NCBI GenBank assembly: GCA_902790595.1
Contig: CADASL010000007.1
Coordinates: 30,200-94,199 of the forward strand
DNA length: 64,000 bases
Source of the DNA: an uncultured Bacteroidales bacterium
GTDB taxonomy: Bacteria; Bacteroidota; Bacteroidia; Bacteroidales; SZUA-534
Reading direction: 5' to 3'
Each line of letters starts with the position of its first letter. Within the stretch, counting starts at the first letter, position 1. The position numbers and the translations under genes were made by a program. Below, in pieces: positions 2 to 26,786 of this stretch. The notes below the pieces were generated by a model, which saw only the letters and a list, made by a program, of their open reading frames with translations, was not told the DNA's origin and searched no databases.

Positions 2-772
2 ACTGTTACGCTTGCCGCGATTTGCACAACCGGCTACGCGCAGAGTAACAACGATTCGACGGCGGACGACACAACCAAAACTAATACCAATCAGCCAAAA
101 GAAGAAGAAAAACAGGTATTTTTTATCGTTGAAAATATGCCCGAATTTCCTTGTGGTGAGGTCGGTTTAAACAAGTATCTTGAGGAAAATATTGTTTATC
201 CTGAAGAGGCGAAAAACAAAGGATTGGAAGGAAAGGTTTTCATATATTTTATTGTTAGTAAAACCGGAGATGTTGAGAATATCAAAGTTGCAAAAGGCAT
301 TGACCCTTTACTGGATAATGAAGCAATTCGCGTTGTGCAAAATATGCCTAAATGGAAACCAGGCTCGCAGCGTGGAAAACCAGTTGAAGTATCATTTTCC
401 TTACCAATAGCTTTTCCTCCTACCAATAACTTTCAAACTCTTGAAACAAAGCCCGAATATCCGGGAGGAGCCTATGCTTTAGAAAAATATATTTCAAAAC
501 AACTTGCGGGGAGACCAAAAATTACAAAAAAGAAAACAGGTAAATACCGCTTCATAATCAACAAACAAGGATATGCCGAAAACATCAGTGTGGTGCGGGG
601 TATAAATTCTGCAATTGACGATATGGTGGTAAGCGCGTTGCAAAATATGTCACAATGGAATTGCGCATATTTCCGAAAGGACCCCAATCAATGGCCCGTT
701 ACCATTTCAATTACGGCTGATAAATATGGCAGATTATCTGTTAGTGTCGATACTATGTGGGTGAATCGGTAA
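2..772 (+). CDS. TonB C-terminal-domain protein, 5' end cut by window edge; signal-peptide type with two TonB_C-like modules
   Basis: Frame is open from nt 2 (TVTLAAICTTGYAQ looks like the end of a signal peptide). MPEFPCGE...NMPKWKPGSQRGKPVEVSFSLPIAF is the TonB_C signature. A second, degenerate module starts KPEYPGGAYALEKYI. Confidence 0.8.
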   Translation, partial: TVTLAAICTTGYAQSNNDSTADDTTKTNTNQPKEEEKQVFFIVENMPEFPCGEVGLNKYLEENIVYPEEAKNKGLEGKVFIYFIVSKTGDVENIKVAKGIDPLLDNEAIRVVQNMPKWKPGSQRGKPVEVSFSLPIAFPPTNNFQTLETKPEYPGGAYALEKYISKQLAGRPKITKKKTGKYRFIINKQGYAENISVVRGINSAIDDMVVSALQNMSQWNCAYFRKDPNQWPVTISITADKYGRLSVSVDTMWVNR

Positions 773-829
773 CGGAAACAACCGCCACCTAAGTTCAAAA
801 TAGAAGTGCCAAGTTGAAAATCTTTTCAT

Positions 830-837
830 TATCTTTG
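830..837 (+). promoter_or_regulatory. Candidate Bacteroidota -7 promoter element (TATCTTTG)
   Basis: Matches the TAnnTTTG consensus about 26 nt upstream of ATG 864. Confidence 0.4.
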
Positions 838-863
838 GCGTATTAACAATTAATTTCATCATA

Positions 864-1346
864 ATGAGCACCCACGCCACAATTCTCACTATTGCGCTTG
901 CCGCGATTTGTTCGATGGGCTATGCGCAAAACAAAGGTACTGACACTGACAAATCAGCCATTACACCCAAAACAGCCGACGCCACCGAAAACACCGCAAA
1001 AAACGAGGATGACGAAGTGTATTTCATCGTTCCAAAAATGCCCGAATTCCCCGGCGGCGATTCCGCTTTGCGCAGATTCATCACCGAGAATCTGAGATAC
1101 CCCGAAGAAGCCAAGGCCAGCGGAATGTCGGGGAAGGTTTTTGTTCAGTTCGTAATCAACAAAAACGGCGAGGTTGAGAATCCCCAGATTGCAAGAGGCG
1201 TTGAGCCGTCATTGAATAAAGAGGCCATCCGCGTAATACAAAGTCTGCCGAAATGGAAGCCCGGCCAGAACAAATCAAAATGGGATAACGAATGGAGACC
1301 AGTGCGGGTATCGTTCACCATTCCTGTCGATTTCAAACTCGAATAG
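864..1346 (+). CDS. TonB C-terminal-domain protein, signal-peptide type, single module
   Basis: N-terminus MSTHATILTIALAAICSMGYAQ resembles a signal peptide. MPEFPGGDSALRRFITENLRYPEEAKASGMSGKVFVQFVINKNGEV...LPKWKPG is the TonB_C signature. There is no TM anchor or Pro-rich spacer. Confidence 0.85.
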   Translation: MSTHATILTIALAAICSMGYAQNKGTDTDKSAITPKTADATENTAKNEDDEVYFIVPKMPEFPGGDSALRRFITENLRYPEEAKASGMSGKVFVQFVINKNGEVENPQIARGVEPSLNKEAIRVIQSLPKWKPGQNKSKWDNEWRPVRVSFTIPVDFKLE

Positions 1347-1416
1347 AAAAGTAATTAACACGCGAACGTGCCGCACAACCGTTCTGCAATGTTTGATTTT
1401 AATTAATAGAAATAAT

Positions 1417-2256
1417 ATGAACGCGAGACACACACTCAAAGCCATTCTGGCCGTTGCATTTGCGGCCGTTTGCACAAACGGCGTGTGCCAAACCGCAGGT
1501 AATCAGCCTGTTATTGTTCCGAAGGATAGTGCGGCCGCCGTCAATCAGCCGATTATCGACGATGACAACACCATTTACACTTCAGTTAAAATAATGCCGG
1601 AATATCCGGGCGGCGAATCTGCCATGAAACAGTATTTTGCTGATAATATGCAGAGTATAAAATCCGCAAAATTCATAAAAGGGAAAGTTTTCGTGCAGTT
1701 TGTAATTGGCAAAGACGGTATGGTTGAACCCGATAATGTGAAAGTTATCACTGGTATCAACCCTGAAATCGACGCAAAAGTGGTTGATTTTATAAAGAGC
1801 ATGCCAAAATGGACGCCCGGTATGCGACTCGAATCGAAAAACGGCACAGTGATGAAGGTGCTTGCGCGGGTATCGATGACTATTCCTATTGAGATATCGA
1901 TTAAGGGCGAAGAAGAAGAAGTGTTCTTCATTGTTGAACACATGCCCGAATTCCCCGGCGGCGATTTGGAATTGCGCAAATACATTGCCGCGAACATTAA
2001 ATATCCCGAAGAAGCCAAAGCAAAAGGCCTGTCGGGAAAAGTTTTTGTTCAGTTCATAATCGACAAGAACGGTGACGTTGTAAATCCCAAAATAGTGAGA
2101 GGCATCGACCCGATATTGGACAACGAAGCCATTCGAGTGATAAAAAGTTTGCCTAAGTGGAAACCCGGGGAGCAAAGCAAAAGAATTGATGGCGAAAAAG
2201 TGTGGGTTCCAAAAAACGTGTCGTGGATTGTGCCTGTCGATTTTCAGATAAAATAG
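1417..2256 (+). CDS. TonB C-terminal-domain protein, signal-peptide type, two modules
   Basis: ATG at 1417 (MNARHTLKAILAVAFAAVCTNGVCQ); the ORF-track start at 1393 is TTG. Two TonB_C modules: MPEYPGGESAMKQYF... and MPEFPGGDLELRKYIAANIKYPEEAKAKGLSGKVFVQF... Confidence 0.85.
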   Translation: MNARHTLKAILAVAFAAVCTNGVCQTAGNQPVIVPKDSAAAVNQPIIDDDNTIYTSVKIMPEYPGGESAMKQYFADNMQSIKSAKFIKGKVFVQFVIGKDGMVEPDNVKVITGINPEIDAKVVDFIKSMPKWTPGMRLESKNGTVMKVLARVSMTIPIEISIKGEEEEVFFIVEHMPEFPGGDLELRKYIAANIKYPEEAKAKGLSGKVFVQFIIDKNGDVVNPKIVRGIDPILDNEAIRVIKSLPKWKPGEQSKRIDGEKVWVPKNVSWIVPVDFQIK

Positions 2257-2408
2257 GATAACCTAAAAACAACAATAAGCTTTAGCGAAAAGCCTCCCAT
2301 ATCCGACTCACAACGCACTTCCGAAAAAAATCGTCGATTTTTCTGTTCCATAAGTAATAATCTATGACAAAATCAGTTATTTTTAATACGAACTAAAAAC
2401 GTAATACT

Positions 2409-3083
2409 ATGGAACTCAAAAAGAATCCACGAGCAGATTTAAGGCGGTACGCCGGACTGTTCTTCGAAGCAGGTTTGGTAGTTGCGTTAAGCGCCGTTCT
2501 GGCATCGTTCAACTACACTAACCACGAGCTAAACCGTATGGTTTTTAGCGGCATTGACAACATCGACTTCGAGGATGTGCTGATTCCCGTCACACACCCG
2601 AAGGAGATTGCACCACCTCCGGCTCCACCAAAAGTTGCCGAGGTTATTACAATCATCGAAAGCGAATCTGAATTGGAGGAGACGCTCGATATTGACGACG
2701 TTGAGGCAACCCAGGAGACTGCGATTACCATCATTGAGAGACCCGACGAAGCGGAAGAACCCGAGCCCGAAATCTTTTTCAGCGCCGAAGTCAATCCTTC
2801 GTTCCCCGGCGGAATGGCAGCCCTGTACAAGCTCATCGGCGAGAGGTTGAATTATCCCGAAGCCGCAAGGAGTAACGGCATTACAGGCAAGGTTCACCTC
2901 AAGTTTGTGATTAATAAGAAAGGCGAGGTTGAAAACGTTCAGATAACCCGAGGCGTTGACCCGCTGCTCGACCGCGAGGCCATCCGCGTGATTGAGGGGC
3001 TTCCACGATGGAATCCCGGCACACAACGCGGCAAACCCGTGAACGTGTGGTTCTCAATGCCGATAAACTTCCAACTAAATTGA
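2409..3083 (+). CDS. Energy transducer TonB (membrane-anchored form)
   Basis: MELKKNPRADLRRY tail, a TM helix (GLFFEAGLVVALSAVLASF), a PPPAPPKV Pro-rich spacer, an acidic stretch and a C-terminal TonB_C domain. Confidence 0.85.
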   Translation: MELKKNPRADLRRYAGLFFEAGLVVALSAVLASFNYTNHELNRMVFSGIDNIDFEDVLIPVTHPKEIAPPPAPPKVAEVITIIESESELEETLDIDDVEATQETAITIIERPDEAEEPEPEIFFSAEVNPSFPGGMAALYKLIGERLNYPEAARSNGITGKVHLKFVINKKGEVENVQITRGVDPLLDREAIRVIEGLPRWNPGTQRGKPVNVWFSMPINFQLN

Positions 3084-3094
3084 CAGATTAAAAG

Positions 3095-3121
3095 TGCCGG
3101 CCAGAGCGCCGGCATTTTTTT
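3095..3121 (+). terminator. Rho-independent terminator
   Basis: TGCCGGC-cagagc-GCCGGCA stem-loop followed by T7. Confidence 0.7.
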
Positions 3122-3236
3122 GGCTGGTTGCGGCTTTTCTGATTCAACCGTCAAAAAAGTTTCTTTTACATTGACATATTATTATAAAAAATTCTACTTT
3201 TAGCGGCTGAAAAAACTAATACTAATAATAAACGCT

Positions 3237-3917
3237 ATGGAACTTAAAAAGAATCCAAAAGCCGACTTACGGCGATACAGCGGATTGTTTCTGGAAGTGG
3301 GATTTGTAGTGGCTTTGTGCGCTATTTTGGGTGCGTTCAGCTACACAATTCACGAGAAGAACACCGCTGGTTTCGGTGAGCTTGAAGATGTCATCGCCGA
3401 AGAGGAAATCATCCCAATCACACGCCAACAGGAGATAACTCCTCCCCCACCGCCGGAGGTTCCGAAGGTTGCCGAGGTAATCAACATTGTTGACGATGAC
3501 GTTGAGATTGACGACGAGCTCGATATTGAGGACGTTGAGGCCGACCAGGATACCGAGGTGGAAATCGTTGCTATGCAAGAGGAGGAAGAGGAAGAGGAAG
3601 CCGAAGTATTCTTCATTGTTGAGAATATGCCCGAATTCCCCGGCGGCGAGCTTGCAATGCGCAAATATCTGGCCGAGCACACCCAATACCCCGAGATTGC
3701 CAAGGAGAACGGTCTTTCGGGAAAGGTTTTCGTTCAGTTCGTGATTAACCAGAAGGGTGAAATCGAGAACGTGAAAATCGCCCGTGGTGTTGACCCCGCA
3801 TTGGATAAGGAAGCCATCCGCGTGGTACAGAGCCTTCCAAAGTGGAAACCTGGCTCGCAGCGTGGAAAACCGGTGCGCGTGTCATTCACAGTGCCAATCA
3901 ACTTCCAGTTGAACTAG
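3237..3917 (+). CDS. Energy transducer TonB (membrane-anchored form)
   Basis: MELKKNPKADLRRY tail, a TM helix, PPPPPEVPKV spacer, an E/D-rich stretch and a TonB_C domain ending PKWKPGSQRGKPVRVSFTVPINFQLN. Confidence 0.85.
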   Translation: MELKKNPKADLRRYSGLFLEVGFVVALCAILGAFSYTIHEKNTAGFGELEDVIAEEEIIPITRQQEITPPPPPEVPKVAEVINIVDDDVEIDDELDIEDVEADQDTEVEIVAMQEEEEEEEAEVFFIVENMPEFPGGELAMRKYLAEHTQYPEIAKENGLSGKVFVQFVINQKGEIENVKIARGVDPALDKEAIRVVQSLPKWKPGSQRGKPVRVSFTVPINFQLN

Positions 3918-6816: not shown

Positions 6817-7019
6817 GTTTTGGTGCATTTTTACGAACCGCAAGAAATGCCCGAAATGATTGAGTTTTCTAATAAAAAATCGTTGTATATTTGTGAGTAA
6901 TAATTAATTATCGCTTACAGGTTTTACATAATGCAAATTATGAAACTTTAAAAACACGATGGCTCAGAAAAGATAATAGCAATTTTTATTGACAATAAAT
7001 TTATAAGAATAACAGAGTA

Positions 7020-7547
7020 ATGAGGAAAATTCTTAAGACAGGTGATTATGCCATATATAATGGGGAAGCATATAAAATCTCATTTGACTCTCAAATTGTA
7101 TCTCCATTCAGAATGGAAGGAGTACATTATTATAAGGCTATTTATAGAATTTGTAATATAACATTGCAAGATTATGATGGTAACAAAATACCAATTGATT
7201 CTATATCACAATTAAAATCCGTATATCATATTTCGACTTATATTGAAATGTTAGGTACTTCTTGTGTCATTCGTGGAGAAACAAATGATGGCTTGTTGTT
7301 TGTAAATATAAATGGAGCACAATTAAAACAAATAAAAGATAAGATTCTATCACATTCTCAATCCGAAATAGACGCTTTTGATGTTTGTGTTTCAATAGAT
7401 AAAATTGATTCGATTTGGTATGAACGGGAACCTTTAGATAAAGATTTTTTATATACGGAACCAATTCCTTTTAATTCCCCCAAAATTACATATATCAAGA
7501 TGTATGGTCAGTGGCTTGATGTGCCTTTGGATGAGCAGATATTATAA
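7020..7547 (+). CDS. Hypothetical protein, 175 aa, in a visibly AT-rich orphan locus
   Basis: Single clean ORF in an AT-rich segment bracketed by terminators. I recognise no motif in it. Confidence 0.55.
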   Translation: MRKILKTGDYAIYNGEAYKISFDSQIVSPFRMEGVHYYKAIYRICNITLQDYDGNKIPIDSISQLKSVYHISTYIEMLGTSCVIRGETNDGLLFVNINGAQLKQIKDKILSHSQSEIDAFDVCVSIDKIDSIWYEREPLDKDFLYTEPIPFNSPKITYIKMYGQWLDVPLDEQIL

Positions 7548-7576
7548 AAACTTAAACCCTTAAAAACCTATAAATC

Positions 7577-7630: not shown

Positions 7631-9610
7631 TTACCAGCACTTGGTGCTTTGGAACGACGATGCGGGAAGGCCCGCGCCGTTGTAGAGCGTGGCTTGGTCA
7701 ACGCAGTCATTCCAAAGGTAGCGCACCGATGCGGGGGCGGCAACCTTGTCGGATGTCACCTTCACCTTTCCGTCTTCAATTACCGCTGTGGCGGGATAGT
7801 ATTTGCCGTCTTTGCCAGCAATCTCAAAATCTTTGAGTTCGCCGCCTTTGGCGTTCAGACCTTCACCGTAATCGAAACTCAGGTAGATGGCTTTCCCGTT
7901 GATTTCCTGACTTTTGAACAGCGGGCCGCTGCAAACAACGTCTTTGCCGTAGATGTTCTTAAACGCCCACAGCGCAAGGCGGTTGCCCACTTCAACCTTG
8001 TTGGCGGGGTGAATATTCTTGTTGTTGCCGATGTCGATGGTCGAAGCCATTCCCGAGTTGGCCACCGACAGCGATACGCGCTGAGCCTCGCGAATTTCCT
8101 CAGAGTGGCCGTTGGTGCCGTAGTCGTAGGGCGCAATCTGCACGTAGTAGAACGGGAAATCGCCCTGAGCCCACTTTTCGCGCCAAGCCTTAATCATTAG
8201 CGGAAACGTGCGGGTGTATTCCTCGGCGTGCCCCACGTTGGCCTCGCCCTGATACCAGATGGCACCAGCCATTGCGTAGCCTGCAAACGGCGCCACCATT
8301 GCGTTGTAAAGGCAGGTCGGTGTCATTTCGCTCAAATCGATGGGGCTAATCGGGCGTTGGAAAAATTCCATTGACTGTATGTCGAATTTGTAGAGTTTCC
8401 CTTTCGACAGTTCGGCCACGGGCAGATATTTCCAACTTCCCGCAAGCGACACGGCGGCTTTTTCGTTATCCTTCGCGTTGCACTTCATTTTCGCAGGGTT
8501 GCCGTAGAGTCCGCCGCCGCCCATATTGTCGGTAACGCGGACGGCAATAACAGCCTTGCCAGCCTTAACCTTCTCGGCGGGAACGGTGTAAACGCGGTCG
8601 GCCTGATAGTTGTTGGTGCGGCCGATGGGTTCGCCGTTGAAGAAAGTCTCGTCGCCGTCGTCAATCGCGCCAAGCGATACCACGAGTTCCTTGCCAGCCA
8701 TTGCGGCGCTGATTTTTATGGTTTTACGGAACCACACAATGCCGTCGAAGGCGCGCACCTCGTTGTTGTTTTCCCAAAGAGTGGGGACGTTCATTGAGTG
8801 CCATTTGCTGTCGTCGAAATCGGGTTTTGCCAGGTCGCCGTCGCCAAGGTCGGGACGGGGGAATGTCGGCACCGACTGTTTCTGCGCAAGCCAACTGTTG
8901 CGTTTCTCGATGATTGGCGAACTTGCCTCAATGTTTTTCGCAATCTGACTGTATTCGGGCACGTTTTTGATATATTCCTGCGGAATCCAACTCTCGACAG
9001 GCGTTCCGCCCCACGACGAGTTGATGATGCCCACAGGCACACCAAGTTCGGCGTTAAGTTTTTTGGCAAAATAGTAGCACGTTGCGCCAAACTGCGGCGT
9101 GTTCTTTGGCGAAGCGGCCTTCCACTCGCCACCCGCCGCATTTTCCTCTTTAAAACTTGTGTTGCGCTCAACCATAAAGATGCGGATGTCGTTGTTGGTG
9201 CTATTGGCAATATCCTCGGGGCCGTTCAGAATGGTGCCGTACGGGAACCCGCTCATAGGCATTTCCATATTGCTCTGCCCCGATGCGAACCAAACCTCGC
9301 CAATCAGCACATTGTTGATGTAGATGGTGTTCTTGCCGTTGATAATCAGCGCGTATGGCCCGCCAAACGATGGTGTTGCCACATTCACCTTCCAGCGTCC
9401 GTCGGCTGCGGCTTCGGCAGTGACGGTTTTGTTGTCCCACGTGTTCGACACTGTGATTTTCTCGCCAGGCTCGGCAAATCCCCACACAGGGGCCGAAGTT
9501 TTTTGCTGCAAAACCATTCCGTCGGTAAATAGCGGCGGCATTTTGACGTCGGCAGTGGCGCAGGCAGCAAACGCAGCCACAGCCGTCAGTGTAAGAATCG
9601 CCTTTTTCAT
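7631..9610 (-). CDS. Sialate O-acetylesterase family (SGNH/SASA) carbohydrate esterase
   Basis: GEVWFASGQSNMEMPM catalytic-serine block typical of the SASA family. Start taken at MKKAILTLTAVAAFAACA (signal peptide) rather than the upstream ORF-track start. Confidence 0.8.
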   Translation of the reverse strand: MKKAILTLTAVAAFAACATADVKMPPLFTDGMVLQQKTSAPVWGFAEPGEKITVSNTWDNKTVTAEAAADGRWKVNVATPSFGGPYALIINGKNTIYINNVLIGEVWFASGQSNMEMPMSGFPYGTILNGPEDIANSTNNDIRIFMVERNTSFKEENAAGGEWKAASPKNTPQFGATCYYFAKKLNAELGVPVGIINSSWGGTPVESWIPQEYIKNVPEYSQIAKNIEASSPIIEKRNSWLAQKQSVPTFPRPDLGDGDLAKPDFDDSKWHSMNVPTLWENNNEVRAFDGIVWFRKTIKISAAMAGKELVVSLGAIDDGDETFFNGEPIGRTNNYQADRVYTVPAEKVKAGKAVIAVRVTDNMGGGGLYGNPAKMKCNAKDNEKAAVSLAGSWKYLPVAELSKGKLYKFDIQSMEFFQRPISPIDLSEMTPTCLYNAMVAPFAGYAMAGAIWYQGEANVGHAEEYTRTFPLMIKAWREKWAQGDFPFYYVQIAPYDYGTNGHSEEIREAQRVSLSVANSGMASTIDIGNNKNIHPANKVEVGNRLALWAFKNIYGKDVVCSGPLFKSQEINGKAIYLSFDYGEGLNAKGGELKDFEIAGKDGKYYPATAVIEDGKVKVTSDKVAAPASVRYLWNDCVDQATLYNGAGLPASSFQSTKCW

Positions 9611-9820
9611 TGTGATGATGTTTTTATAATTCAAATGCAAGATATAACGTTTTCGCAAACATTGGAATCATTTGATTTCAAAATCGCTTTCGCGGATATT
9701 CTGACACATAAACTTCTATCACAATCGTGAAAACGGCCATAACAGATTCTGCTTGCAGATTTGGTTTAGTTGCCTAAATTTGGGCTACTATTTTTTCACA
9801 TTAAAACAACATTTTCGATT

Positions 9821-10465
9821 ATGGAAAACGCATTAGTTTGGTTAAAAAGAATCAGGAACACAATCGGGTTCCTTGGTATGTTACTTCCCTGGATAGCACT
9901 GTTGGGAACATTTTTGGCATCAAAACATATTGATATAACTCCTACTTTTTGGAAGGAACTTTCCATTTCAGCCACCTACTATGTTACCCCGGCTCTTACT
10001 GGAATACTGACAACGGCTGCTGTTGTTTTAATATGTTATTATGGATATGGTCCAGAAGACGACATTCCAACTACCGCAGCGGGTGTATTTGGGTTAATGA
10101 TCGTACTATTTCCTTGCAGCTGTGACCTTTCTGCTGGTAAAATTGTAGGTTTCTTTCAATTGCAAGCTGAAACATCTCACATCATACACTGTATATCTGC
10201 GGTTTGCTTCTTTCTGTTACTTTCTTATATCAGTCTTTTCTTGTTTACCAAAAGCTATCCTGACAAGGAACAAACCGCACAAAAGAAGACGAGAAACAAA
10301 ATTTATATTACCTGCGGAATCGGAATGCTGGCGGCTTTAATCCTAATGCCCCTGCACATAGATTTTTACGCAAAGACTTTTATTGTAGAGGCAATCGCAC
10401 TCACCTTCTTCGGCATAAGCTGGCTTGTGAAAGGACAAGTGTTCGGGCTTTTTGCGGATAAATAA
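9821..10465 (+). CDS. Multi-pass membrane protein of unknown function
   Basis: About six hydrophobic helices. ATG at 9821 (MENALVWLKRIRN). Its last 24 codons are duplicated at 14101-14175. Confidence 0.7.
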   Translation: MENALVWLKRIRNTIGFLGMLLPWIALLGTFLASKHIDITPTFWKELSISATYYVTPALTGILTTAAVVLICYYGYGPEDDIPTTAAGVFGLMIVLFPCSCDLSAGKIVGFFQLQAETSHIIHCISAVCFFLLLSYISLFLFTKSYPDKEQTAQKKTRNKIYITCGIGMLAALILMPLHIDFYAKTFIVEAIALTFFGISWLVKGQVFGLFADK

Positions 10466-10468
10466 TTG
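10392..10468 (+). repeat. Left copy of a 77-nt direct repeat (3' end of the membrane-protein gene)
   Basis: Recurs at 14102-14178, offset 3710 nt. Over the 74 nt of the repeat up to and including the stop codon, 69 positions are identical. Confidence 0.9.
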
Positions 10469-10512
10469 TTGCATAACGGCAATTATGAGTCGAAAAACAC
10501 AGCAGGAGTATT

Positions 10513-11154
10513 ATGAATAATCCGTGGGAAGAGATCAGTTTGGACGATTATGAGAATCATATGAGCCTTGATTCCGTAAAACAACTCCAAGCTATGAATA
10601 AAATAATGGAGGAACAGTTTGATGCATATCCTGCTTCCACGGCTATGGTGCTTGGTGTTGCCGGAGGAAATGGCTTGGAACATATAAGGCGGAATAAGTA
10701 TCAGACCGTTTATGGCGTGGATATTAACGGAGATTATCTTCGCACGGTTTCGGAAAGGTATGCCGACCTGTCGGATGTGCTGAAGTGTTTGAAGATAGAC
10801 CTAATCTATGAAACGGATAAGCTTCCCGAGGCGCAGCTGCTGATAGCAAATCTTCTTATCGAGTATATTGGTTATGATGTATTTCAGAGAGTGATCCGTA
10901 AAGTGAATCCTGAATATGTGTCTTGTGTGATTCAGATTAATACGGATGATAAGCAGTGGGTATCAGATTCGCCTTATCTACACGCTTTTGACAGGCTTGA
11001 TGAGGTACATCATCAGATGGACGGGAATCTTCTTTCGACAAAATTGATGGAGATAGGGTATAAAGAGATACTTCAAAAAAGGACCGCACTTCCTAATGGA
11101 AAGGCATTATTAAGAATGGATTTCATAAAAGGACAACAAACAAAGGAGGAGTAA
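10513..11154 (+). CDS. Class I SAM-dependent methyltransferase
   Basis: VLGVAGGNGLEHI glycine-rich SAM motif followed by the acidic YGVDIN loop. AGGAG lies 4 nt upstream of the ATG. Confidence 0.75.
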   Translation: MNNPWEEISLDDYENHMSLDSVKQLQAMNKIMEEQFDAYPASTAMVLGVAGGNGLEHIRRNKYQTVYGVDINGDYLRTVSERYADLSDVLKCLKIDLIYETDKLPEAQLLIANLLIEYIGYDVFQRVIRKVNPEYVSCVIQINTDDKQWVSDSPYLHAFDRLDEVHHQMDGNLLSTKLMEIGYKEILQKRTALPNGKALLRMDFIKGQQTKEE

Positions 11155-11703
11155 ATGATACTATTAGTTGTAGATACCCAAAAGGGCTGTTTTGACGAAA
11201 GGTTATATTCGTTTGAAAGGGTAAGAAAAAATATAAAACAGTTAATTACTATAGCAAGAGAGAATAATGTTGAGGTTGTATATGTTCAGCACGATGACGG
11301 CCCTGGTTCTGGTCTGGACAAAGCAACGGATAACTATGAGATATATGAAGATTTTGCACCGAGGAAAGATGAAAGGCGTTTTGAAAAGAATGTAAACAGT
11401 GCTTTTCATCCTATGACAGGATTGACAGAATATCTGCAGTCTAAGGGGGAAAAAGATATTATAACAATCGGAGTGTCAACAGATTATTGTATGGATGCAA
11501 CGATTAAAAGCGGTTTTGAAAAAGGCTTCAACTTATTTGTTCCTTCATACACAAACTCAACCTATGATAATCCGTATTTTGATAAGGAAACTGCCTACAA
11601 GTATTTTAATGAATTTATGTGGGGAACACGTTATGCGAAGATAATTACTGTTGAACAAGCTATCCAACTTTTACAATCCAAAATATCAACTACGGATATA
11701 TAA
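11155..11703 (+). CDS. Isochorismatase-family cysteine hydrolase
   Basis: LLVVDTQ (Asp), EKNVNSAF (Lys) and VSTDYCMDAT (Cys) form the family triad pattern. The ATG directly abuts the upstream stop, and AAGGAGG lies 5 nt upstream. Confidence 0.8.
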   Translation: MILLVVDTQKGCFDERLYSFERVRKNIKQLITIARENNVEVVYVQHDDGPGSGLDKATDNYEIYEDFAPRKDERRFEKNVNSAFHPMTGLTEYLQSKGEKDIITIGVSTDYCMDATIKSGFEKGFNLFVPSYTNSTYDNPYFDKETAYKYFNEFMWGTRYAKIITVEQAIQLLQSKISTTDI

Positions 11704-11755
11704 ATAGTATTACGAACTAATAGAAAGTAATTTAATAGTTGGGCTTGTTTTGCAA

Positions 11756-12307
11756 ATGATTTACGTCAAAGCCACATCAAACCAAATTGATGAAATAATG
11801 GCGGTTTATTCCGCGGCCATAACCGCGATGGAAAATTCGGGCATTCACCAATGGGACGAGATTTATCCTGACAAAACCACTATTGCCAACGACATTTGCA
11901 AAAATCAAATGTATGTCGGAATAATTGACAATAAAATTGCCGTTTGCTTTGCGTTGAGTGAAGATTGCGACGAACAATATAAAAACGGCAAATGGGCATA
12001 CCCTAACTCAAAATTCTGTGTTATTCATCGATTGTGCGTCTCGCCCGAGTTTCAGCATAAGGGAATTGCGTCTCAAGCAATGTCATATATCGAAAAACTT
12101 TGTAAATCTGTTGGATACAATTCAATCCGTTTAGATTGTTTTACACTCAATCCGTATTCAAAAAGACTTTATGATAAGGCTGGTTACAAAGTAGTCGGTT
12201 ATGCGGATTGGCGCAAAGGCAGGTTTGAATTGAGAGAGAAGATTCTCCAAAATCTCGCCGCCGCTCGCCAAAAAGCCACGTCCCGAACCGATAATACGGC
12301 TTTGTAA
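11756..12307 (+). CDS. GNAT family N-acetyltransferase
   Basis: RLCVSPEFQHKGIASQAM acetyl-CoA-binding motif A (Q/RxxGxA). ATG at 11756; the ORF-track start at 11750 is TTG. Confidence 0.85.
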   Translation: MIYVKATSNQIDEIMAVYSAAITAMENSGIHQWDEIYPDKTTIANDICKNQMYVGIIDNKIAVCFALSEDCDEQYKNGKWAYPNSKFCVIHRLCVSPEFQHKGIASQAMSYIEKLCKSVGYNSIRLDCFTLNPYSKRLYDKAGYKVVGYADWRKGRFELREKILQNLAAARQKATSRTDNTAL

Positions 12308-12689
12308 AACGCTGATTATCATTGGCATTGGGAATGTTGCTGTTTTGGTACACATTAATAATCAGCCAATTAGCTCCACAAAACAGATTTTATGGCGTTT
12401 TTCCGATTCTATTTTCAGCAAAAAATCAAAAAAATCACAAACGTTTGAATCGTGTTTATAACACTGAATATCAGAGTGTAACAAAACGGCAACACTGTTA
12501 AGATTTTGTCATTGCAAACCACTTATCAATTTGAATATCAAAAACATAAATAGCAACACACATTTAAAAACACTGAACGTCAAATTGTTAACTGCGTTAG
12601 ATTTGTCAGTGACAAGTTCAGAGAACGGAACAGAATTGTTTTGTAAAGATTTTAAAACGTAAATAATAACATTAGAGAGGTTTTTTATT

Positions 12690-14093
12690 ATGCAAGAGAA
12701 TTTTTTTGAATCAGTATCAAAGCCATTGAGGAATAAATTGATATTTGAGATGGCGAAAGAGTATGCATTTGATTATATAGATGGAATTTCAGAGCGGAAT
12801 GTGTATCCAAAGGAGGAGGATTTACTAAAGCTTAAGAGTTTTTATGAACCTCTACCTCAAATCGGTACAGATGAAGAGGAAATTTTGTCAACGCTTCATC
12901 TGAATGGTTCGCCCAATACATTAGCGCAGACCGGTGGAAGATATTATGGATTTGTGAATGGCGGTGCGTTACCGGTCACACTTGCAGTCAGGTGGCTGAC
13001 TGATGTTTGGGATCAGAATTCCGTACTCTATGTTGCATCACCTGTTGCAGGCGTAATTGAAGAAGTATGTGAGAAATGGATTGTTGATTTATTTGAACTT
13101 CCCGCAGAAACTGCGATGGGATTGGTGGGCGGTTCTTCGGATGCTTCTCTATGTGCACTGACCGTTGCACGAAATACCATATTGGAACGTAACGGCTACA
13201 ATATTTATGAAAATGGATTAATGGGTGCCCCTGAGATTCGTGTTGTATTAAGTGAAAATGCTCACGCAACCATCTTCAAAGCCTTATCTGTTTTGGGAAT
13301 CGGTTCCAAGAATATAATCAAGGTTGAGTCAAATCCGGATGGGACAATGCGTTTGGATAAGTTGCCTGAATTAGATGAAAAAACGATTCTGATTCTTCAA
13401 GCCGGCAATGTAAATACAGGAGCATTCGATCAGTTCGATACACTCTGTGATCTGGCCAATGAAAAGAATGCCTGGATCCATATTGATGGAGCGTTTGGAC
13501 TATGGGCAAAAACAAGCAAGGTATATGCTTATCTGGCAAAGGGAATGGAAAAGGCTACTTCGTGGTCTGTCGATGCACATAAAACATTAAATGTTCCATA
13601 CGATTGCGGAATTGTTCTTTGCAAATACCGGGATGCTTTCTGCAAAGCATTACAAGCAAATGGAGCCTACATCATTTACAGTGGGAAACGAGATGGTATG
13701 CTATATACAACGGCTATGTCAAGAAGAGCAAGAGCTTTCGAATTGTGGGCTGCAATTAAGTACTTAGGCAAAGAAGGAATTGCAACTCTTGTGGAAACTC
13801 TTTGTAGGAATGCAAAAACCTTTGCCGGACGACTGTCACAACTTGGATTTACGATACTGAATGATGTTGTGTATAATCAAGTACTGATACAGTACGTAGA
13901 TGATGAGATGACAAAACGTGTTCTTGAATATGTGCAAAATGATCGTGTGTGCTGGTGTGGCCCGACACAATGGAAAGGAAAAATGGCAATCCGATTAAGT
14001 GTATGCTCTTGGGCGACCACGAAGGAAGATATTGAATTGTGTGTCGATAGTTTTAAAAGAGGAATTGAATATACAAGAGAGAATATCTTTTAA
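12690..14093 (+). CDS. PLP-dependent group II (aspartate aminotransferase fold) decarboxylase
   Basis: 467 aa. SVDAHKTLNVPYDCG carries the PLP-lysine motif (S-x-D-x-H-K) of group II decarboxylases. GAGAGG lies 9 nt upstream of the ATG. Confidence 0.8.
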   Translation: MQENFFESVSKPLRNKLIFEMAKEYAFDYIDGISERNVYPKEEDLLKLKSFYEPLPQIGTDEEEILSTLHLNGSPNTLAQTGGRYYGFVNGGALPVTLAVRWLTDVWDQNSVLYVASPVAGVIEEVCEKWIVDLFELPAETAMGLVGGSSDASLCALTVARNTILERNGYNIYENGLMGAPEIRVVLSENAHATIFKALSVLGIGSKNIIKVESNPDGTMRLDKLPELDEKTILILQAGNVNTGAFDQFDTLCDLANEKNAWIHIDGAFGLWAKTSKVYAYLAKGMEKATSWSVDAHKTLNVPYDCGIVLCKYRDAFCKALQANGAYIIYSGKRDGMLYTTAMSRRARAFELWAAIKYLGKEGIATLVETLCRNAKTFAGRLSQLGFTILNDVVYNQVLIQYVDDEMTKRVLEYVQNDRVCWCGPTQWKGKMAIRLSVCSWATTKEDIELCVDSFKRGIEYTRENIF

Positions 14094-14100
14094 TGTTTAA

Positions 14101-14175
14101 ACAATCGCTCTCACATTCTTCGGCATAAGTTGGCTTGTGAAAGGACAGGTGTTCGGGCTTTTTGCGGATAAATAG
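14101..14175 (+). pseudogene. Displaced 3' fragment (24 codons plus stop) of the 9821-10465 membrane-protein gene; right copy of the direct repeat
   Basis: Translates in frame to TIALTFFGISWLVKGQVFGLFADK*, against AIALTFFGISWLVKGQVFGLFADK* in the intact gene. There is no upstream coding continuation. Confidence 0.85.
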
Positions 14176-14297
14176 TTGCGCAACCATAAAATTGGCAAGC
14201 CTTGCTGATTGTGTACGGCATAATCGCCCTTGATATTAACGAATATCGCGGCGGAATCGGCTAAAAATTCATTGATTCCGCCCTTATTCTTAACAAT

Positions 14298-14345
14298 CGC
14301 GGCGGAATCGAGCAAAAAATCGTCGATTCCGCCGCGTTTTTTTTT
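14298..14345 (+). terminator. Rho-independent terminator; second of two tandem hairpin modules
   Basis: CGCGGCGGAATCGA...TCGATTCCGCCGCG stem of about 14 bp followed by a T-run of about 10. A weaker copy of the module lies at 14246-14283. Confidence 0.75.
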
Positions 14346-14377
14346 GCTAAAGACGAAAATAGTTTGTCATTTATGAC

Positions 14378-15595
14378 TCATTTGTAAATTACCCAATCGA
14401 ATTGTGGTTTAGCAATATAATTTCCTTGCTTGTCAATTATGCCCCATTTATTATTTACTTGAACAAAAATGATATTGTTGTATGTTTTTAAGAAATCAAA
14501 ACGAGGGGTTATAACTATTTCACCCTTTTTATTGATACACCCGTATTTGTTTTTTAATTTAATACGAGCCAAGCCATTATCTTCAAAATCCCAAGCATTA
14601 TCAAATTGCAGCCTAATAACTACCTTCCCGTTTTTATCAATAAATCCATGCTTGTCGTTTAGTTCCACATGGGCTATCCCATTGTTTGCATAATCCCAAG
14701 CATAGTCATATTGTAAATCGACTACCATTTTGCCTGTTTTGTCAACAAATCCATATTTGTCATTTAATTTGACAACAGCCAAGCCAATGCTTGTAAAATA
14801 CTCTGCCCAATCGAATTGTGGTTCAATAACAATTTTTCCGTTTTCGTCAACATATCCCCATTTACCATCTATTTTTACACGAGTCAAGTCTGTGTCTTTA
14901 AAATTCCCAGCATCGTCAAATTGGGGTTCGATAACGATATTACCGGTTTTATCAATAAAACCTATTTTGCCTCTTAATAATACGCGCGCCAAACCATTGT
15001 TTGAAAAAGGAGAAGCATAGCCGAACATCGGTTCGATAACCATTTGACCGGTTGTATCAACGTATCCCCAAAGTCCCTTACGAACGGAAGCCAATCCATT
15101 ACTAAAAGAAGATCCAGTGAAAAACTGCGGCTCAACGACCATTTTACCGGTTTTATCAATAAATCCCCATTTACCATCTTTTTTCACAAATGCCAAGCCA
15201 ACGTCATAATAATCTATAGCATCATCAAACTGTGGTTTAATAATTATTTCACCGGTTTCGTCTATATATCCATATTTCCCACTTGATTTGACAAGAGCCA
15301 AGCCACTGTTTGAAAAATTAGAAACCCTGTCAAACTGTGGCTCAATAACGGTTTTGCCTGTTTTATCGACAAATCCATATTTGCCATCTAATAATATACG
15401 AGCCAACCCGTTATTAGGAAAATAATAAGCATCGTCAAATTGCGGTTTGATAATCCAATTGCCTTTCTTGTCGATATAGCCACTCTTACCATCAATTCCG
15501 GCAGGAATTAATAAATTGTCACTATTAGTGTTTTGTCCAGTGGCAAAATTTGCAGTAACAAACAGCAAACAGAGCGTTAAAATATTAGGTTTCAT
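14378..15595 (-). CDS. WG-repeat (KWG) protein, secreted, about 11 tandem 35-aa repeats
   Basis: Signal peptide MKPNILTLCLLFVTANFATGQ, then repeats of the type GKYGFVDKTGKxVIEPQFDxAxxFSNNGLARVKL. The locus is AT-rich. Confidence 0.85.
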   Translation of the reverse strand: MKPNILTLCLLFVTANFATGQNTNSDNLLIPAGIDGKSGYIDKKGNWIIKPQFDDAYYFPNNGLARILLDGKYGFVDKTGKTVIEPQFDRVSNFSNSGLALVKSSGKYGYIDETGEIIIKPQFDDAIDYYDVGLAFVKKDGKWGFIDKTGKMVVEPQFFTGSSFSNGLASVRKGLWGYVDTTGQMVIEPMFGYASPFSNNGLARVLLRGKIGFIDKTGNIVIEPQFDDAGNFKDTDLTRVKIDGKWGYVDENGKIVIEPQFDWAEYFTSIGLAVVKLNDKYGFVDKTGKMVVDLQYDYAWDYANNGIAHVELNDKHGFIDKNGKVVIRLQFDNAWDFEDNGLARIKLKNKYGCINKKGEIVITPRFDFLKTYNNIIFVQVNNKWGIIDKQGNYIAKPQFDWVIYK

Positions 15596-15846
15596 TCTTT
15601 TATATGCACAAAATTTAGTATTAGAACAATTAAGGTTTTTATATTAATATGTAACATTAAAACACAATAATAGGAAAAATATCTTTTAAGAATGCTATAT
15701 ACTTGCTACATGATAAAGTATTTGTAACCCCAAACCTAAATTCGTTGAAAAAATCCGTTGTCTGTAGTCCGAAGTCTATTGTCCCGAAAAAAACTGCGTC
15801 ATTAAAAGAAAATTTATAATTTGCCGTTCATTAAAAACCGACGATT

Positions 15847-17046
15847 ATGAATTATATACTCTTCGACGACAGCACTTGGGACGAATTGCTTCCCTTGACC
15901 TTCACTCGGCCGACAGCCGAAATCCGTGTGGGAATTCTGACCATTCGCGAGAAGTGGGAAAAATATCTGGCTGGCGAGCCATTGTCGTACTGCACAAGGC
16001 CGCATCTGCGGGCAAAGTTCCCAATGACGGTTGGTGCCGACAATATTTTCATCAACGGCACGGTGATTCCGACGGCCGAACTGCTGGCCGAACTCGAGGA
16101 ACTGCAACCTGGGCAGGCGCTGGTGTGCGACGATTCGGTGACGGCCATCCGTTTGGATAAGGCGCAGGCCGAACGCTTCGACCCGACACGCATCGCCTTC
16201 AAGGACTATACGCAGCAAATATCTGAATGTCATCGCGTTGAGCATCTGTCAGACATCTTCCGCAACAACGGCGACGCCATTGAGCACGATTTCCGCATCA
16301 TCACCAAAGGGCGCAAATCGGCACAGTTGAGCGCCACAAACCGCATCATCGGCTCGGGCGACATTTTTGTTGAGCACGGCGCGGTGGTTGAGTGCTGCAT
16401 TCTGAACACCACCAACGGCCCCATCTACATCGGTCGCAACAGCGAGATTATGGAAGGCTCGTGCATCCGCGGGCCGTTTGCGCTCTGCACGGGCTCGGTG
16501 GTGAAAATGGGCGCGAAGATTTACGGGCCGACAACCGTGGGACCGCACTCGAAGGTGGGCGGCGAACTGAACAACGTTGTGATTTTCGGCAACAGCAACA
16601 AGGCTCACGACGGATTTTTGGGCAACACCGTGGTTGGCGAATGGTGCAATTTCGGCGCCGACACCAACTGCTCGAACCTTAAAAACGATTATTCCGAAGT
16701 GCGCCAATGGAACTATCCTGCGGGGAAATTCATCAAGACGGGGCTGCAGTTCTGCGGCCTTGTAATGGGCGACTACAGCCGCACGGCCATCAACACAATG
16801 CTGAACACGGGAACGGTGGTTGGCGTGGGCGCAAACATCTATGGTTCAGGCTTTCCGCGGAATTTTGTGCCATCGTTTATGTGGGGCGGTTCGGCTGGAT
16901 TCAAGCCCTGTACGCCCGAAACGCTGTGCCAAGTTGCCGAACGTGTTCTGGCTCGCCGAGGCCTGCAGTTGAGCGACATCGACCGCCAACTGATTGCCGA
17001 CGTCTTCGGCTTGACCGCGAAATACAGAGGAGGATATAAGAGTTAA
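15847..17046 (+). CDS. GlmU-like sugar-phosphate nucleotidyltransferase / left-handed beta-helix (hexapeptide) family protein
   Basis: The C-terminal half is rich in hexapeptide-type repeats (IGRNSEIMEGSCIRGP, VGPHSKVGGELNNVVIFGNS). The N-terminal region is nucleotidyltransferase-like. Confidence 0.65.
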   Translation: MNYILFDDSTWDELLPLTFTRPTAEIRVGILTIREKWEKYLAGEPLSYCTRPHLRAKFPMTVGADNIFINGTVIPTAELLAELEELQPGQALVCDDSVTAIRLDKAQAERFDPTRIAFKDYTQQISECHRVEHLSDIFRNNGDAIEHDFRIITKGRKSAQLSATNRIIGSGDIFVEHGAVVECCILNTTNGPIYIGRNSEIMEGSCIRGPFALCTGSVVKMGAKIYGPTTVGPHSKVGGELNNVVIFGNSNKAHDGFLGNTVVGEWCNFGADTNCSNLKNDYSEVRQWNYPAGKFIKTGLQFCGLVMGDYSRTAINTMLNTGTVVGVGANIYGSGFPRNFVPSFMWGGSAGFKPCTPETLCQVAERVLARRGLQLSDIDRQLIADVFGLTAKYRGGYKS

Positions 17047-26220: not shown

Positions 26221-26293
26221 GACTCGCTAGCTCAGCTGGTAGAGCAACAGACTCTTAATCTGTGGGTCCAGGGTTCGATCCCCTGGCGGGTCA
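26221..26293 (+). tRNA. tRNA-Lys (anticodon CTT)
   Basis: Hand-folded cloverleaf. Acceptor stem GACTCGC/GCGGGTC, D arm GCTC-AGCTGGTA-GAGC, anticodon stem ACAGA/TCTGT with loop CTCTTAA, T arm CAGGG-TTCGATC-CCCTG. CCA is not encoded. Confidence 0.9.
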
Positions 26294-26304
26294 CAAAAGG
26301 AAAA

Positions 26305-26335
26305 AGGAAGCTGAAATGGCTTCCTTTTGTTGTTT
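26305..26335 (+). terminator. Terminator after tRNA-Lys
   Basis: AGGAAGC-tgaaatg-GCTTCCT stem followed by TTTTGTTGTTT. Confidence 0.7.
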
Positions 26336-26355
26336 AATACTGTTACACATAAATG

Positions 26356-26386
26356 AAAAAACGCGGGTCGCAATGCGAATCCGCGC
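26356..26386 (-). terminator. Terminator after ssrA
   Basis: On the minus strand, a GCGCGGATTCGCA-T-TGCGACCCGCGT extended hairpin followed by T6. Confidence 0.75.
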
Positions 26387-26394
26387 TTTTGTTG

Positions 26395-26786
26395 TGGAGC
26401 TGCCGGGATTTGAACCCGGGTCCAGACAAGGAAACCATGAGCTTTCTACACGCTTAGCTCTGACTTGGTTTTCGTGCGCCGGCCGGATCAAAGCCACCTA
26501 CCAACGCCTTATCCTCAAAATCTCACCCGCATTACGAGGCTAATGCGAGCCAGTCCCGAATTGCTGCACATCAGAATCGGCGAGCCTCAAGACAAGGGCT
26601 TCCGCGATGCGTCTTGTCCCAGCTCCTTGAGCTGGGATTAGGCCAATCTACTATACTTCGATTAGGCGGCAAGAGCGTAAGAATTTTCGCCAGTTATAGT
26701 TTTGTGTCCGGGATTTACGGGCCGGTTTCACTGCTCCCGACGTGCTTACCCACCACTTCATCTTGCTGTCAAATCCAATCAACCCC
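26395..26786 (-). ncRNA. ssrA: tmRNA (SsrA), tag peptide GENSYALAA
   Basis: On the minus strand, the 5' end GGGGTTGATTGGATTTGACAGC pairs with the 3' end CAGCTCCA (tRNA-Ala-like acceptor with a G-U pair), and GGATTTGAACCCGG forms the T arm. The resume/tag region GGCGAAAATTCTTACGCTCTTGCCGCCTAA encodes G-E-N-S-Y-A-L-A-A-stop. Confidence 0.9.

Follow-up and report, generated by a model that had tools for sequence, protein, structure and literature searches.

A duplicated gene end in a strain-variable slot of uncultured Bacteroidales, probably a recombination scar rather than the attachment site of an element

In the Campbell model, integrase-mediated elements insert into the 3' end of a gene, with attachment (att) sites in tRNA, tmRNA or protein-coding genes, and carry a surrogate end that restores the gene they enter. 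C-terminal displacement, which leaves orphan modules behind, is said to occur in rhs and cdi loci, reportedly after Jackson et al. in 2009 and Poole et al. in 2011. Here, we analyze a stretch of 64,000 nucleotides (nt) from an uncultured Bacteroidales bacterium, hereafter the window, in which the 3' end of a membrane-protein gene recurs behind four further genes, followed by a terminator-like hairpin and by a gene for a WG-repeat protein on the opposite strand. We conclude that this repeat is probably a recombination scar, left when a one-sided combination of homologous and illegitimate recombination stacked two versions of the same chromosomal slot, and not the att site of an element. Homology-facilitated illegitimate recombination, the process that we have in mind, has one homologous end and one illegitimate joint with 3–10 bp of microhomology (de Vries & Wackernagel 2002, Prudhomme et al. 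2002, and Meier & Wackernagel 2003, as summarized in PMC3240628). Orphan 3' ends with displaced partner genes have been ascribed to it (Kirchberger et al. 2017, PMC5361080), and many transfer hotspots hold no mobile elements, their turnover going through recombination in the flanking core genes (Oliveira, Touchon & Rocha 2017, PMC5635113).

The locus shares features with each of these systems. As in homology-facilitated illegitimate recombination, there is one homologous end and one illegitimate joint, foreign or non-allelic DNA came in while some resident DNA was lost, no element recombinase is present, and a microhomology (AGAGAGAAG) lies at the joint between a decarboxylase gene and a GNAT gene; unlike the measured cases, the process is deduced here from comparative sequence alone. 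As in the 3'-end displacement of rhs, cdi, and type VI secretion system (T6SS) loci, a full gene is followed by the orphan 3' end of another allele with its own partner gene, a conserved upstream gene would act as recombination anchor, and the alleles are mosaic; unlike those loci, the gene is not a toxin/immunity gene, the orphan is single, without an array, and consists of a conserved C-terminal helix instead of a variable toxin tip, unrelated metabolic cargo lies between gene and orphan, and the partner gene, which lies on the opposite strand, encodes a WG-repeat protein of a secreted or lipoprotein-like kind, not an immunity protein. Campbell-type elements likewise have slightly diverged direct repeats of a gene 3' end, an intact upstream gene, and cargo in between; the window differs from them in having no integrase or defined core, non-chimeric copies, cargo gathered stepwise, the same cargo without the repeat in sister strains, and one repeat edge that is an illegitimate joint truncating a cargo gene. 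Finally, integrase-free hotspots offer the same picture of rapid gene turnover between two conserved genes, without mobility genes and with frequent homologous recombination in the flanks; unlike the surveys of such hotspots, ours is a single locus in an uncultured lineage, where the joints of individual insertions can be read at the nucleotide level.

The duplicated gene end and the two neighborhoods of its copies

The end of the membrane-protein gene recurs as a direct repeat (10392-10468 and 14102-14178, spacing 3710 nt), as a first-pass annotation of this DNA had pointed out; a repeat finder widens the pair to 10377-10468 and 14087-14178, with 82 of 92 nt identical (89%), and a blastn comparison of the pair with the compared loci gave E = 6.6e-30. 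Over the final 74 nt, stop included, the copies are separated by exactly five changes (GCA/GCT, ACC/ACA, AGC/AGT, CAA/CAG, and TAA/TAG), all of them silent, again as first noted, and both copies translate into IALTFFGISWLVKGQVFGLFADK before their stop codons. Silent changes make up 23–27% of the possible single-base changes in this stretch, and five out of five would be silent with a probability of about 0.0006–0.0014 without constraint. Such silent-only differences (P of about 0.001) argue that the copies diverged while each of them ended a working gene, in different lineages. The codon just before the 74 nt carries a non-silent change (GCA, Ala, against ACA, Thr), Thr being found in several natural alleles. 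The 15 nt further 5' (10377-10391 and 14087-14101) match at 11 of 15 positions and contain disruptive changes in copy 2, namely an in-frame TAA and a T-to-A change that creates the stop codon of the decarboxylase gene. The longest exact run common to the two copies is 26 nt.

We then compared both copies with related loci, labeled L001-L037 in the assemblies examined. Copy 1 is of one type throughout, that of the gene end in L026 and L027, and is not chimeric. Copy 2 differs from this type at seven positions in its first 30 nt and again over its final 30 nt, where the stop codon and the bases behind it are different as well; its TAG stop and the sequence behind it match L013, not copy 1. The two copies are, on these alignments, two diverged alleles of one gene end and not a target-site duplication, which upholds the earlier proposal on two grounds: the silent-only differences and the orthology of copy 2, with the DNA downstream of it, to the end of a full-length gene in L013-type genomes.

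Indeed, copy 2 still has its own neighbors. The WG protein is 100% identical in L013-L020 (99.6% at the DNA level) and absent from L012, L026, and L027. A homologue search with this protein was dominated by repeat-rich proteins and gave no close relative; an exact-sequence look-up found the matches instead, in 23 further contigs (including L013, L014, which is GCA_017526035.1, and L016-L020) that encode the identical protein. Their order, in window orientation, is full-length 213-aa (amino acid) membrane gene, terminator, WG gene on the minus strand, NTP_transf_4, and Lon; the homology of the window to these L013-type contigs starts at 14089, at the start of the orphan, and continues for 5.8 kb. 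An “empty site”, in the sense of a membrane gene standing directly before the sequence from 14179 onwards, therefore exists in L013-type genomes. From this shared order, we read copy 2 as the remnant of a second membrane-gene allele, still placed before its own terminator and neighbor, and associate it with the WG gene rather than with the four genes between the repeats.

The terminator in question is the second of two hairpin units behind the orphan. It has a 14-bp GC-rich stem (14298-14336) followed by U9 and an RNA fold of −27.4 kcal/mol (z = −4.8); a simple terminator scan missed this long hairpin, which RNA folding revealed. It is a candidate terminator that could be used by both converging genes, and L004, L007, and L013 have it too, right behind the stop codon of their full-length membrane gene. 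The unit is tandem in the window, its two versions being 84% identical, and single in L013; as a dispersed repeat, it was not found elsewhere in the window. We also observed that 14236-15800 (1.56 kb, with the WG gene) is 99.6% identical to L013-L020, in a lineage otherwise at 90–97% (90–99% beyond the tract), and that the identity to L013 drops sharply to about 88% left of position 14236 (14089-14235); this segment has the appearance of a WG gene imported recently by homologous recombination, with putative crossovers in the hairpin region and upstream of NTP_transf_4.

The two boundaries of the DNA brought with copy 2 are of a different nature. On the left, the orphan begins at position −92 of the membrane-gene allele, at a joint between unrelated sequences that cuts both genes short. 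On the right, the L012-type, L010, L011, and L013-type haplotypes all become homologous to the window again at about 15754-15783, upstream of NTP_transf_4. The window thus has 1670 nt (14084-15753), made of the orphan, the terminator, and the WG gene with its upstream region, where L012, L026, and L027 have 34 nt (GNAT tail plus spacer); left of the slot, the SASA and membrane genes are common to the window and the L012 type. One boundary where homology resumes and one that is illegitimate make up the signature of homology-facilitated illegitimate recombination.

A variable slot with composite contents

The locus was recovered in many metagenome assemblies by exact-protein look-ups and collection scans, and a scan of genome contigs with the membrane protein led to one locus, L012. 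Related assemblies carry public labels such as “uncultured Bacteroidetes” and “Salinivirgaceae bacterium”; the names of assemblies and datasets suggest ruminant gut samples as the source, and the lineage belongs to the Bacteroidales represented solely by metagenome assemblies. Searches of plasmid, phage, and viral collections turned up nothing closely related to the cassette, the membrane gene, or the decarboxylase, and an Rfam scan of 9000-16500 returned zero families or structured elements.

Going by the haplotypes, the slot in the arrangement SASA esterase, membrane gene, slot, and NTP_transf_4(-Lon) varies from strain to strain, and six or more different contents occur in it (Table 1); none of the other versions found among the compared relatives has a second copy of the gene end. 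The PPDK-SASA and NTP_transf_4-Lon flanks are roughly 90–98% identical among relatives, with fluctuations between 90 and 99%. The DNA between the repeats had been described as AT-rich: its low GC is real, but the AT-rich tract is wider, from about 9650 to 15800, and takes in both the membrane gene, with a GC of 0.40, and the WG-repeat gene, with 0.36, against 0.55 for SASA and 0.56 for NTP_transf_4 in the flanks.

Table 1. Features of the locus in window coordinates, and slot contents of the compared haplotypes.
Feature	Position	Strand	Remarks
Left edge of variable tract and upstream region of membrane gene	9707-9820	+	Identity to L006: 98% through 9706, 74.5% from 9764
Membrane-protein gene, allele A	9821-10465	+	Full-length open reading frame (ORF), 214 aa; resident, hypervariable, mosaic
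Repeat copy 1	10377-10468	+	Allele A's own 3' end with 3 further nt; 104/104 against L026/L027 gene end
Module 1, at the membrane-gene stop codon	10466-11732	+	213-aa S-adenosylmethionine (SAM)-methyltransferase-family gene (10513-11154) and isochorismatase/cysteine-hydrolase-family gene (11155-11703)
GNAT module	11733-12246	+	Gene 11798-12307; 94% to L010 857-1371 and L006 10815-11323; GNAT Pfam matches
AGAGAGAAG in GNAT 3' end	12233-12241	+	Target-side copy of the microhomology; native GNAT tail lost from here
Decarboxylase module	12247-14083	+	New GNAT tail and AT-rich spacer (12247-12673), pyridoxal phosphate (PLP)-dependent decarboxylase gene (12690-14093)
Illegitimate joint, decarboxylase 3' end (AGAGAGAA) to orphan	14076-14086	+	Joint at 14084-14086; native last decarboxylase codons lost; protein ends RENIF inside the orphan
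Repeat copy 2	14087-14178	+	Orphan 3' end of second membrane-gene allele; own TAG stop; TAA at 14098-14100 closes it upstream
Native downstream region of membrane gene, kept with the orphan	14179-14377	+	Two 51-nt hairpin units, 14245-14295 and 14296-14346
WG-repeat protein gene	14378-15595	−	405 aa; WG_beta_rep Pfam match, E = 6e-126
Right edge of variable tract, conserved region upstream of NTP_transf_4	15754-15846	+	NTP_transf_4 gene 15847-17046; homology to every haplotype restarts
Slot content, L011			75-aa ORF after membrane gene
Slot content, L010			GNAT only after membrane gene
Slot content, L012, L026, L027			The window's four genes, then NTP_transf_4 directly
Slot content, L006			GNAT and two unrelated minus-strand genes
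Slot content, L004/L005			Terminator, EcoRI-like methylase, GmrSD/HNH
Slot content, window, L001, L003			Four genes, orphan, terminator, WG gene

The membrane gene itself varies as much as the DNA behind it. No Pfam family and no toxin domain were found for its product, which has 1263 homologues in Bacteroidales metagenome-assembled genomes; the gene is syntenic behind SASA in L004, L006, L010, L011, and L012. Its counterpart in L012 is 98% identical and those in L006 and L013 about 75%, and in L006 it stands at 74.5% between flanks about 97% identical to those of the window. In L011, the first ~420 nt are 100% window-like and the last ~220 nt are 98–100% L013-like, a clear recombinant between two types of allele with its breakpoint near nt 420. 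These patterns identify the gene, as far as alignments can tell, as a recombination mosaic that forms the left anchor of the slot and lies itself inside the low-GC variable tract; the “host” gene of the first-pass annotation is indeed resident, but it is part of what varies. Its last ~90 nt stay 88–91% identical between strains when the rest is at about 75%, a contrast that suggests diversifying selection or frequent allele exchange on a gene with a conserved C-terminal helix. L006 also has an insertion of about 175 nt (10640-10815) just 5' of the membrane-gene stop, with CGGATAAAT at each side, which lengthens the protein by 31 residues to 245 aa.

The DNA between the repeats appears to be composite, its four genes having arrived, on the evidence of the haplotypes, in at least three steps and not as one mobile unit. 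All four genes occur in L012, L026, and L027, together with a single copy of the gene end; L010 has just one of them, and L013, which has none, carries the partner genes of the orphan. The first module is missing in L010, where window positions 10470 and 11733 are adjacent and the GNAT region comes directly after the stop. The GNAT module opens with TAATAGTTGGGCTTGTTTTGCAA, which is the post-stop sequence of the membrane gene in L010 and L006; together with the adjacency in L010, this marks 10466-11732 as an insertion at the stop codon. Its second gene has an isochorismatase Pfam match (E = 6e-24), and its first is placed in the SAM-methyltransferase family because of the matches of its homologues, 24 of 36 of which match Methyltransf_25, one homologue being fused to an isochorismatase domain; for the 213-aa protein itself, single-sequence structure prediction reached a pLDDT of 34 and a profile search of PDB sequences gave no match.

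The decarboxylase (Pyridoxal_deC Pfam match, E = 8e-36) is separated from the GNAT gene by an AT-rich spacer of 382 nt. Homology of the GNAT gene to L010 and L006 stops within 12241-12246, right after AGAGAGAAG. At the end of the decarboxylase gene in L012, one finds AGAGAGAAG again, then AATCCTAACTAAACAATAAAAACTG, which is the displaced GNAT tail (compare AATCTTAACTGAACTATAAAAACTG in L006), then the spacer as in L010; the same 9-nt microhomology is also present in the donor-type gene (L021: ...AGAGAGAAGGGAAAATAA). The GNAT tail behind the L012 decarboxylase and the shared AGAGAGAAG argue that the module 12247-14083 entered an intact GNAT gene at the 9-nt microhomology. The C-termini of the protein keep the trace of these joints: REKGK is the native end (L021), REKNPN (L012) and REKNLN are fusions to the GNAT tail, and RENIF is that of the window. 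In a 302-member cluster at 90%, the tails vary among REKGK, KKNEK, REKNLN, RENIF, and others.

The core of the module (12674-14083) is 93% identical at the nt level to L021 and L022 and 90% identical to L028-L035, and its homology to these Firmicutes-type contexts is confined to the ORF, from the ribosome-binding site to a few codons before the stop; across contexts, the module edges are the ribosome-binding site and the stop region. The context in L021 comprises tyrosine integrase, NikA-like, and ParM-like genes, with a T-box-like leader and an alaS fragment upstream, and that in L022-L025 comprises a large serine recombinase, an AEP primase, and MobA/MobL. Such identities and contexts indicate a recent cross-phylum transfer of the core from a Firmicutes-type mobile element into a Bacteroidales chromosome.

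Diverged direct repeats also bracket the decarboxylase in L021 (1-95 and 2463-2557; 95 nt), L022 (9880-9916 and 11446-11482; 37 nt), and L028 (6684-6928 and 9893-10137; 245 nt). In L021, both copies encode in frame the end of one gene (…LGMPENT.FLGNV.ADWL…LLSE, then the stop), with amino-acid differences between them, and allelic segments may often be stacked around the decarboxylase gene. The idea that the decarboxylase is generally a cassette with an insertion signature of its own was rejected, as L029, L030, L032, and L034 have no repeats and those of L021, L022, and L028 share no sequence; GTTCAAC in L022, considered as an integron attC, was dropped as a chance 7-mer. The decarboxylase adjoins GNAT and SAM-methyltransferase genes both in the window (10513-14093) and on the Firmicutes-type L022 (8408-11404); the GNAT and methyltransferase genes of the two loci are not homologous (nothing by blastp at E 0.01). 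This recurrent company hints at a functional trio acting on an amine by decarboxylation, N-acetylation, and methylation. The nearest solved relatives of the enzyme are diaminobutyrate, acidic, and aromatic amino-acid decarboxylases.

As regards expression, the motif TAnnTTTG, which is not enriched in the window overall, occurs on the plus strand of 9700-14400 at two places only: 9775-9782 (TAAATTTG), 39 nt upstream of the membrane gene, and 12598-12605 (TAGATTTG), in the spacer and 85 nt before the start of the decarboxylase gene; a minus-strand occurrence at 15731-15738 lies upstream of the WG gene. The copy at 9775-9782 is a candidate Bacteroidetes-type −7 box, and a promoter there is predicted from the motif. 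The membrane, methyltransferase, isochorismatase-family, and GNAT genes are separated by gaps of 47, 0, and 94 nt, in which neither a terminator scan nor folding found a terminator-like hairpin, so that the first three cargo genes are probably co-transcribed from the promoter of the membrane gene; transcription probably ends at the hairpin retained with the orphan.

Other observations concern the surroundings. In L004 (11073-13392, also in L005), the cargo is of the defense type, an EcoRI-like methylase with a GmrSD_N/HNH protein replacing the metabolic genes. A second small indel of about 600 nt lies at 6954-7552 of the window (GC 0.285), with a 175-aa ORF (7020-7547) without family match and a short direct repeat at its edges (AAACTTTAAAAAC and AAACCCTTAAAAAC); it is absent from L012, L026, L027, and L004, and L006 has YopX-like and NADase/intein-like genes at the same position, which makes the PPDK-SASA interval another variable slot. 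Upstream of PPDK (137-3917), at least five paralogous TonB_C genes, 72–77% identical to one another, form an array, and a tRNA-Lys(CTT) gene stands beside a tmRNA gene (tag GENSYALAA) at 26221-26786.

Proposed history and rival explanations

The order of events proposed here is the one that parsimony gives for the observed haplotypes. The starting point would be a membrane(A)-GNAT-NTP arrangement, as in L010, into which the methyltransferase-isochorismatase pair would have been inserted at the stop codon of the membrane gene. The decarboxylase module would then have entered the 3' end of the GNAT gene at the AGAGAGAAG microhomology and pushed the GNAT tail behind the decarboxylase, giving the state of L012, L026, and L027. 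In a fourth step, an L012-type haplotype would have been joined to a membrane(B)-terminator-WG(−)-NTP haplotype, whose downstream order is that of L013-type genomes. The right junction of this last step would lie on the NTP_transf_4 side, where homology to both parental haplotypes resumes, and the left one would be illegitimate, linking the last decarboxylase codons to the position 92 nt short of the membrane(B) end; most of membrane(B) would have been removed and its last 92 nt retained with the terminator and the WG gene, i.e., the “second copy”. Homology-facilitated illegitimate recombination or, equivalently, 3'-end displacement would be the route, for which housekeeping recombination functions would suffice; the anchor could have been either the right side in an L012-type recipient or the left side in a WG-type recipient. 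Both parental arrangements do exist, the L012 type in 3 assemblies and the L013-type downstream order in 23 contigs, with a different left flank in the L013 type.

Several points weigh against this history. A SASA-membrane(B)-terminator-WG-NTP parent was not found, exact look-ups with SASA and NTP_transf_4 having returned the window-type haplotype only; L013-type genomes carry TrmA-like and GAPDH genes instead of SASA left of the membrane gene, which therefore sits at a synteny break. The orphan and the first ~150 nt downstream are only about 88% identical to L013, the gene end of the L013 type being about 90% identical to the orphan, against 99.6% for 14236-15800; the orphan therefore does not descend from L013 itself, and the WG gene must be assumed to have been imported later. 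The simplest reading would be that the orphan was formed in an older event and that the WG gene was imported later by homologous recombination. Moreover, the joint of the fourth step (14084-14086) falls within 1–3 nt of the older joint between decarboxylase and GNAT tail (14083): either the two coincide by chance, for which our own estimate is roughly 10% (about 40 nt being permissible if the decarboxylase is to be kept intact), or they bear the mark of a fragile or preferred site, e.g., a fragile purine run. Any microhomology at that joint would have to be scored against the parental allele, the donor and recipient of the fourth step could be exchanged, entry of DNA by natural transformation or another route is presumed for the lineage, and all comparative evidence comes from metagenome assemblies or assembled contigs.

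This last point opens the way to an artefact of assembly or binning, i.e., a chimeric join of reads from two co-existing strains, the more so as L012-type and L013-type strains may co-occur. We consider it extremely improbable. The junction is identical over 294/294 nt (14084-14377) in L003, a separate Logan assembly of run ERR3275116, and in the ENA scaffold STEW19 scaffold_19, and is found base-for-base in L001/L015; since it recurs in independent assemblies and the shared runs are at most 26 nt, a false join is unlikely, and the joint lies outside shared sequence, at a unique illegitimate contact between decarboxylase and orphan with a newly made stop codon. The first-pass annotation had suggested the integration of a circular DNA carrying a surrogate gene end. 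In the version of this model that is easiest to defend, a circle with the last ~92 nt of a membrane allele and the four genes would have entered a membrane gene-terminator-WG chromosome by a single crossover within the 92 nt, owing to a site-specific recombinase acting in trans or to homologous recombination after a linear fragment had circularized. The structure formally fits, with an intact gene, cargo, and an orphan gene end before the native terminator, the L013-type genomes offer an equivalent of the empty site, and incoming linear DNA does circularize in E. coli before single-crossover integration (PMC3240628). The copies, however, are not reciprocal chimeras: copy 1 is of the L026/L027 type at 104/104 positions and copy 2 is different from its first to its last bases, so that no exchange segment of an attL/attR hybrid is visible, and a single crossover within the repeat is disfavored because copy 1 is not chimeric. 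Furthermore, an exact run of 26 nt is a poor RecA substrate, the left edge of copy 2 is degenerate and truncates the decarboxylase, the cargo is composite, and L012-type genomes have the cassette at the same place without the second copy, with a different right joint that can be explained. Gene-end repeats bound no other slot content. No integrase, transposase, or relaxase is present in or near the region, as the first-pass annotation had stated for the enclosed DNA; at the level of the locus, no recombinase domain was found in the six genes of the tract or in the called genes within 10 kb on either side (L001/L036/L037). On these grounds, we hold integration of a circle to be unlikely. Nor did we find the features of a transposon or insertion sequence (no transposase and no inverted repeats at the edges, the repeat being 92 nt long and 11% diverged) or of an integron (no intI-like gene, and no motif or attC-like palindrome shared by the three module junctions).

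Another possibility is that the window type is ancestral, derived for example from a tandem pair of membrane genes of which the second was truncated in place, and that the L012 type arose by later deletion of the orphan, the terminator, and the WG gene. The widespread WG-NTP adjacency (23 contigs), the frequency of deletions in such slots, and the age of the orphan region relative to the WG gene (about 88% against 99.6% to L013) speak for it. L012, L026, and L027 are nevertheless not simple deletions, as they have, in place of 14084-15753, the 34 nt of displaced GNAT tail and L010/L006 spacer; these 34 nt are the direct product of the insertion of the decarboxylase module into an intact GNAT gene, which contradicts a deletion, and none of the compared loci carries a pair of full-length membrane genes in tandem. 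We therefore give this scenario a low probability. Lastly, a preferred capture site could lie between the conserved last ~90 nt of the membrane gene and the terminator, where promoter-less foreign genes would repeatedly be loaded behind the resident promoter by a trans-acting function or through sequence-specific fragility, and not by selection among illegitimate joints that arose by chance. At least four independent joints do fall at the membrane-gene stop or within 92 nt of it (the methyltransferase-isochorismatase insertion, the 175-nt insertion of L006 with CGGATAAAT, the GNAT adjacency, and the orphan edge), and two more coincide within 3 nt at the decarboxylase end; we nonetheless find such a site quite improbable, and favor a scar of one-sided recombination.

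The mechanism is ordinary, with nothing new in it; the locus is an unusually legible example of known processes. It records how accessory genes are assembled in the chromosome of an uncultured member of the Bacteroidales without mobile-element machinery: a gene acquired recently from a Firmicutes-type element (93% nt identity) would have entered the 3' end of a resident gene through a 9-nt microhomology, homologous recombination in a mosaic anchor gene would have swapped the contents of the slot, and a one-sided event would have stacked two of these contents, with an orphan gene end as its trace. One has to remember that direct repeats of a gene end around AT-rich cargo are not sufficient to indicate an integrative element. 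If our reading holds, the window would provide a natural example of homology-facilitated illegitimate recombination beyond the small set of model species where such events have been measured.

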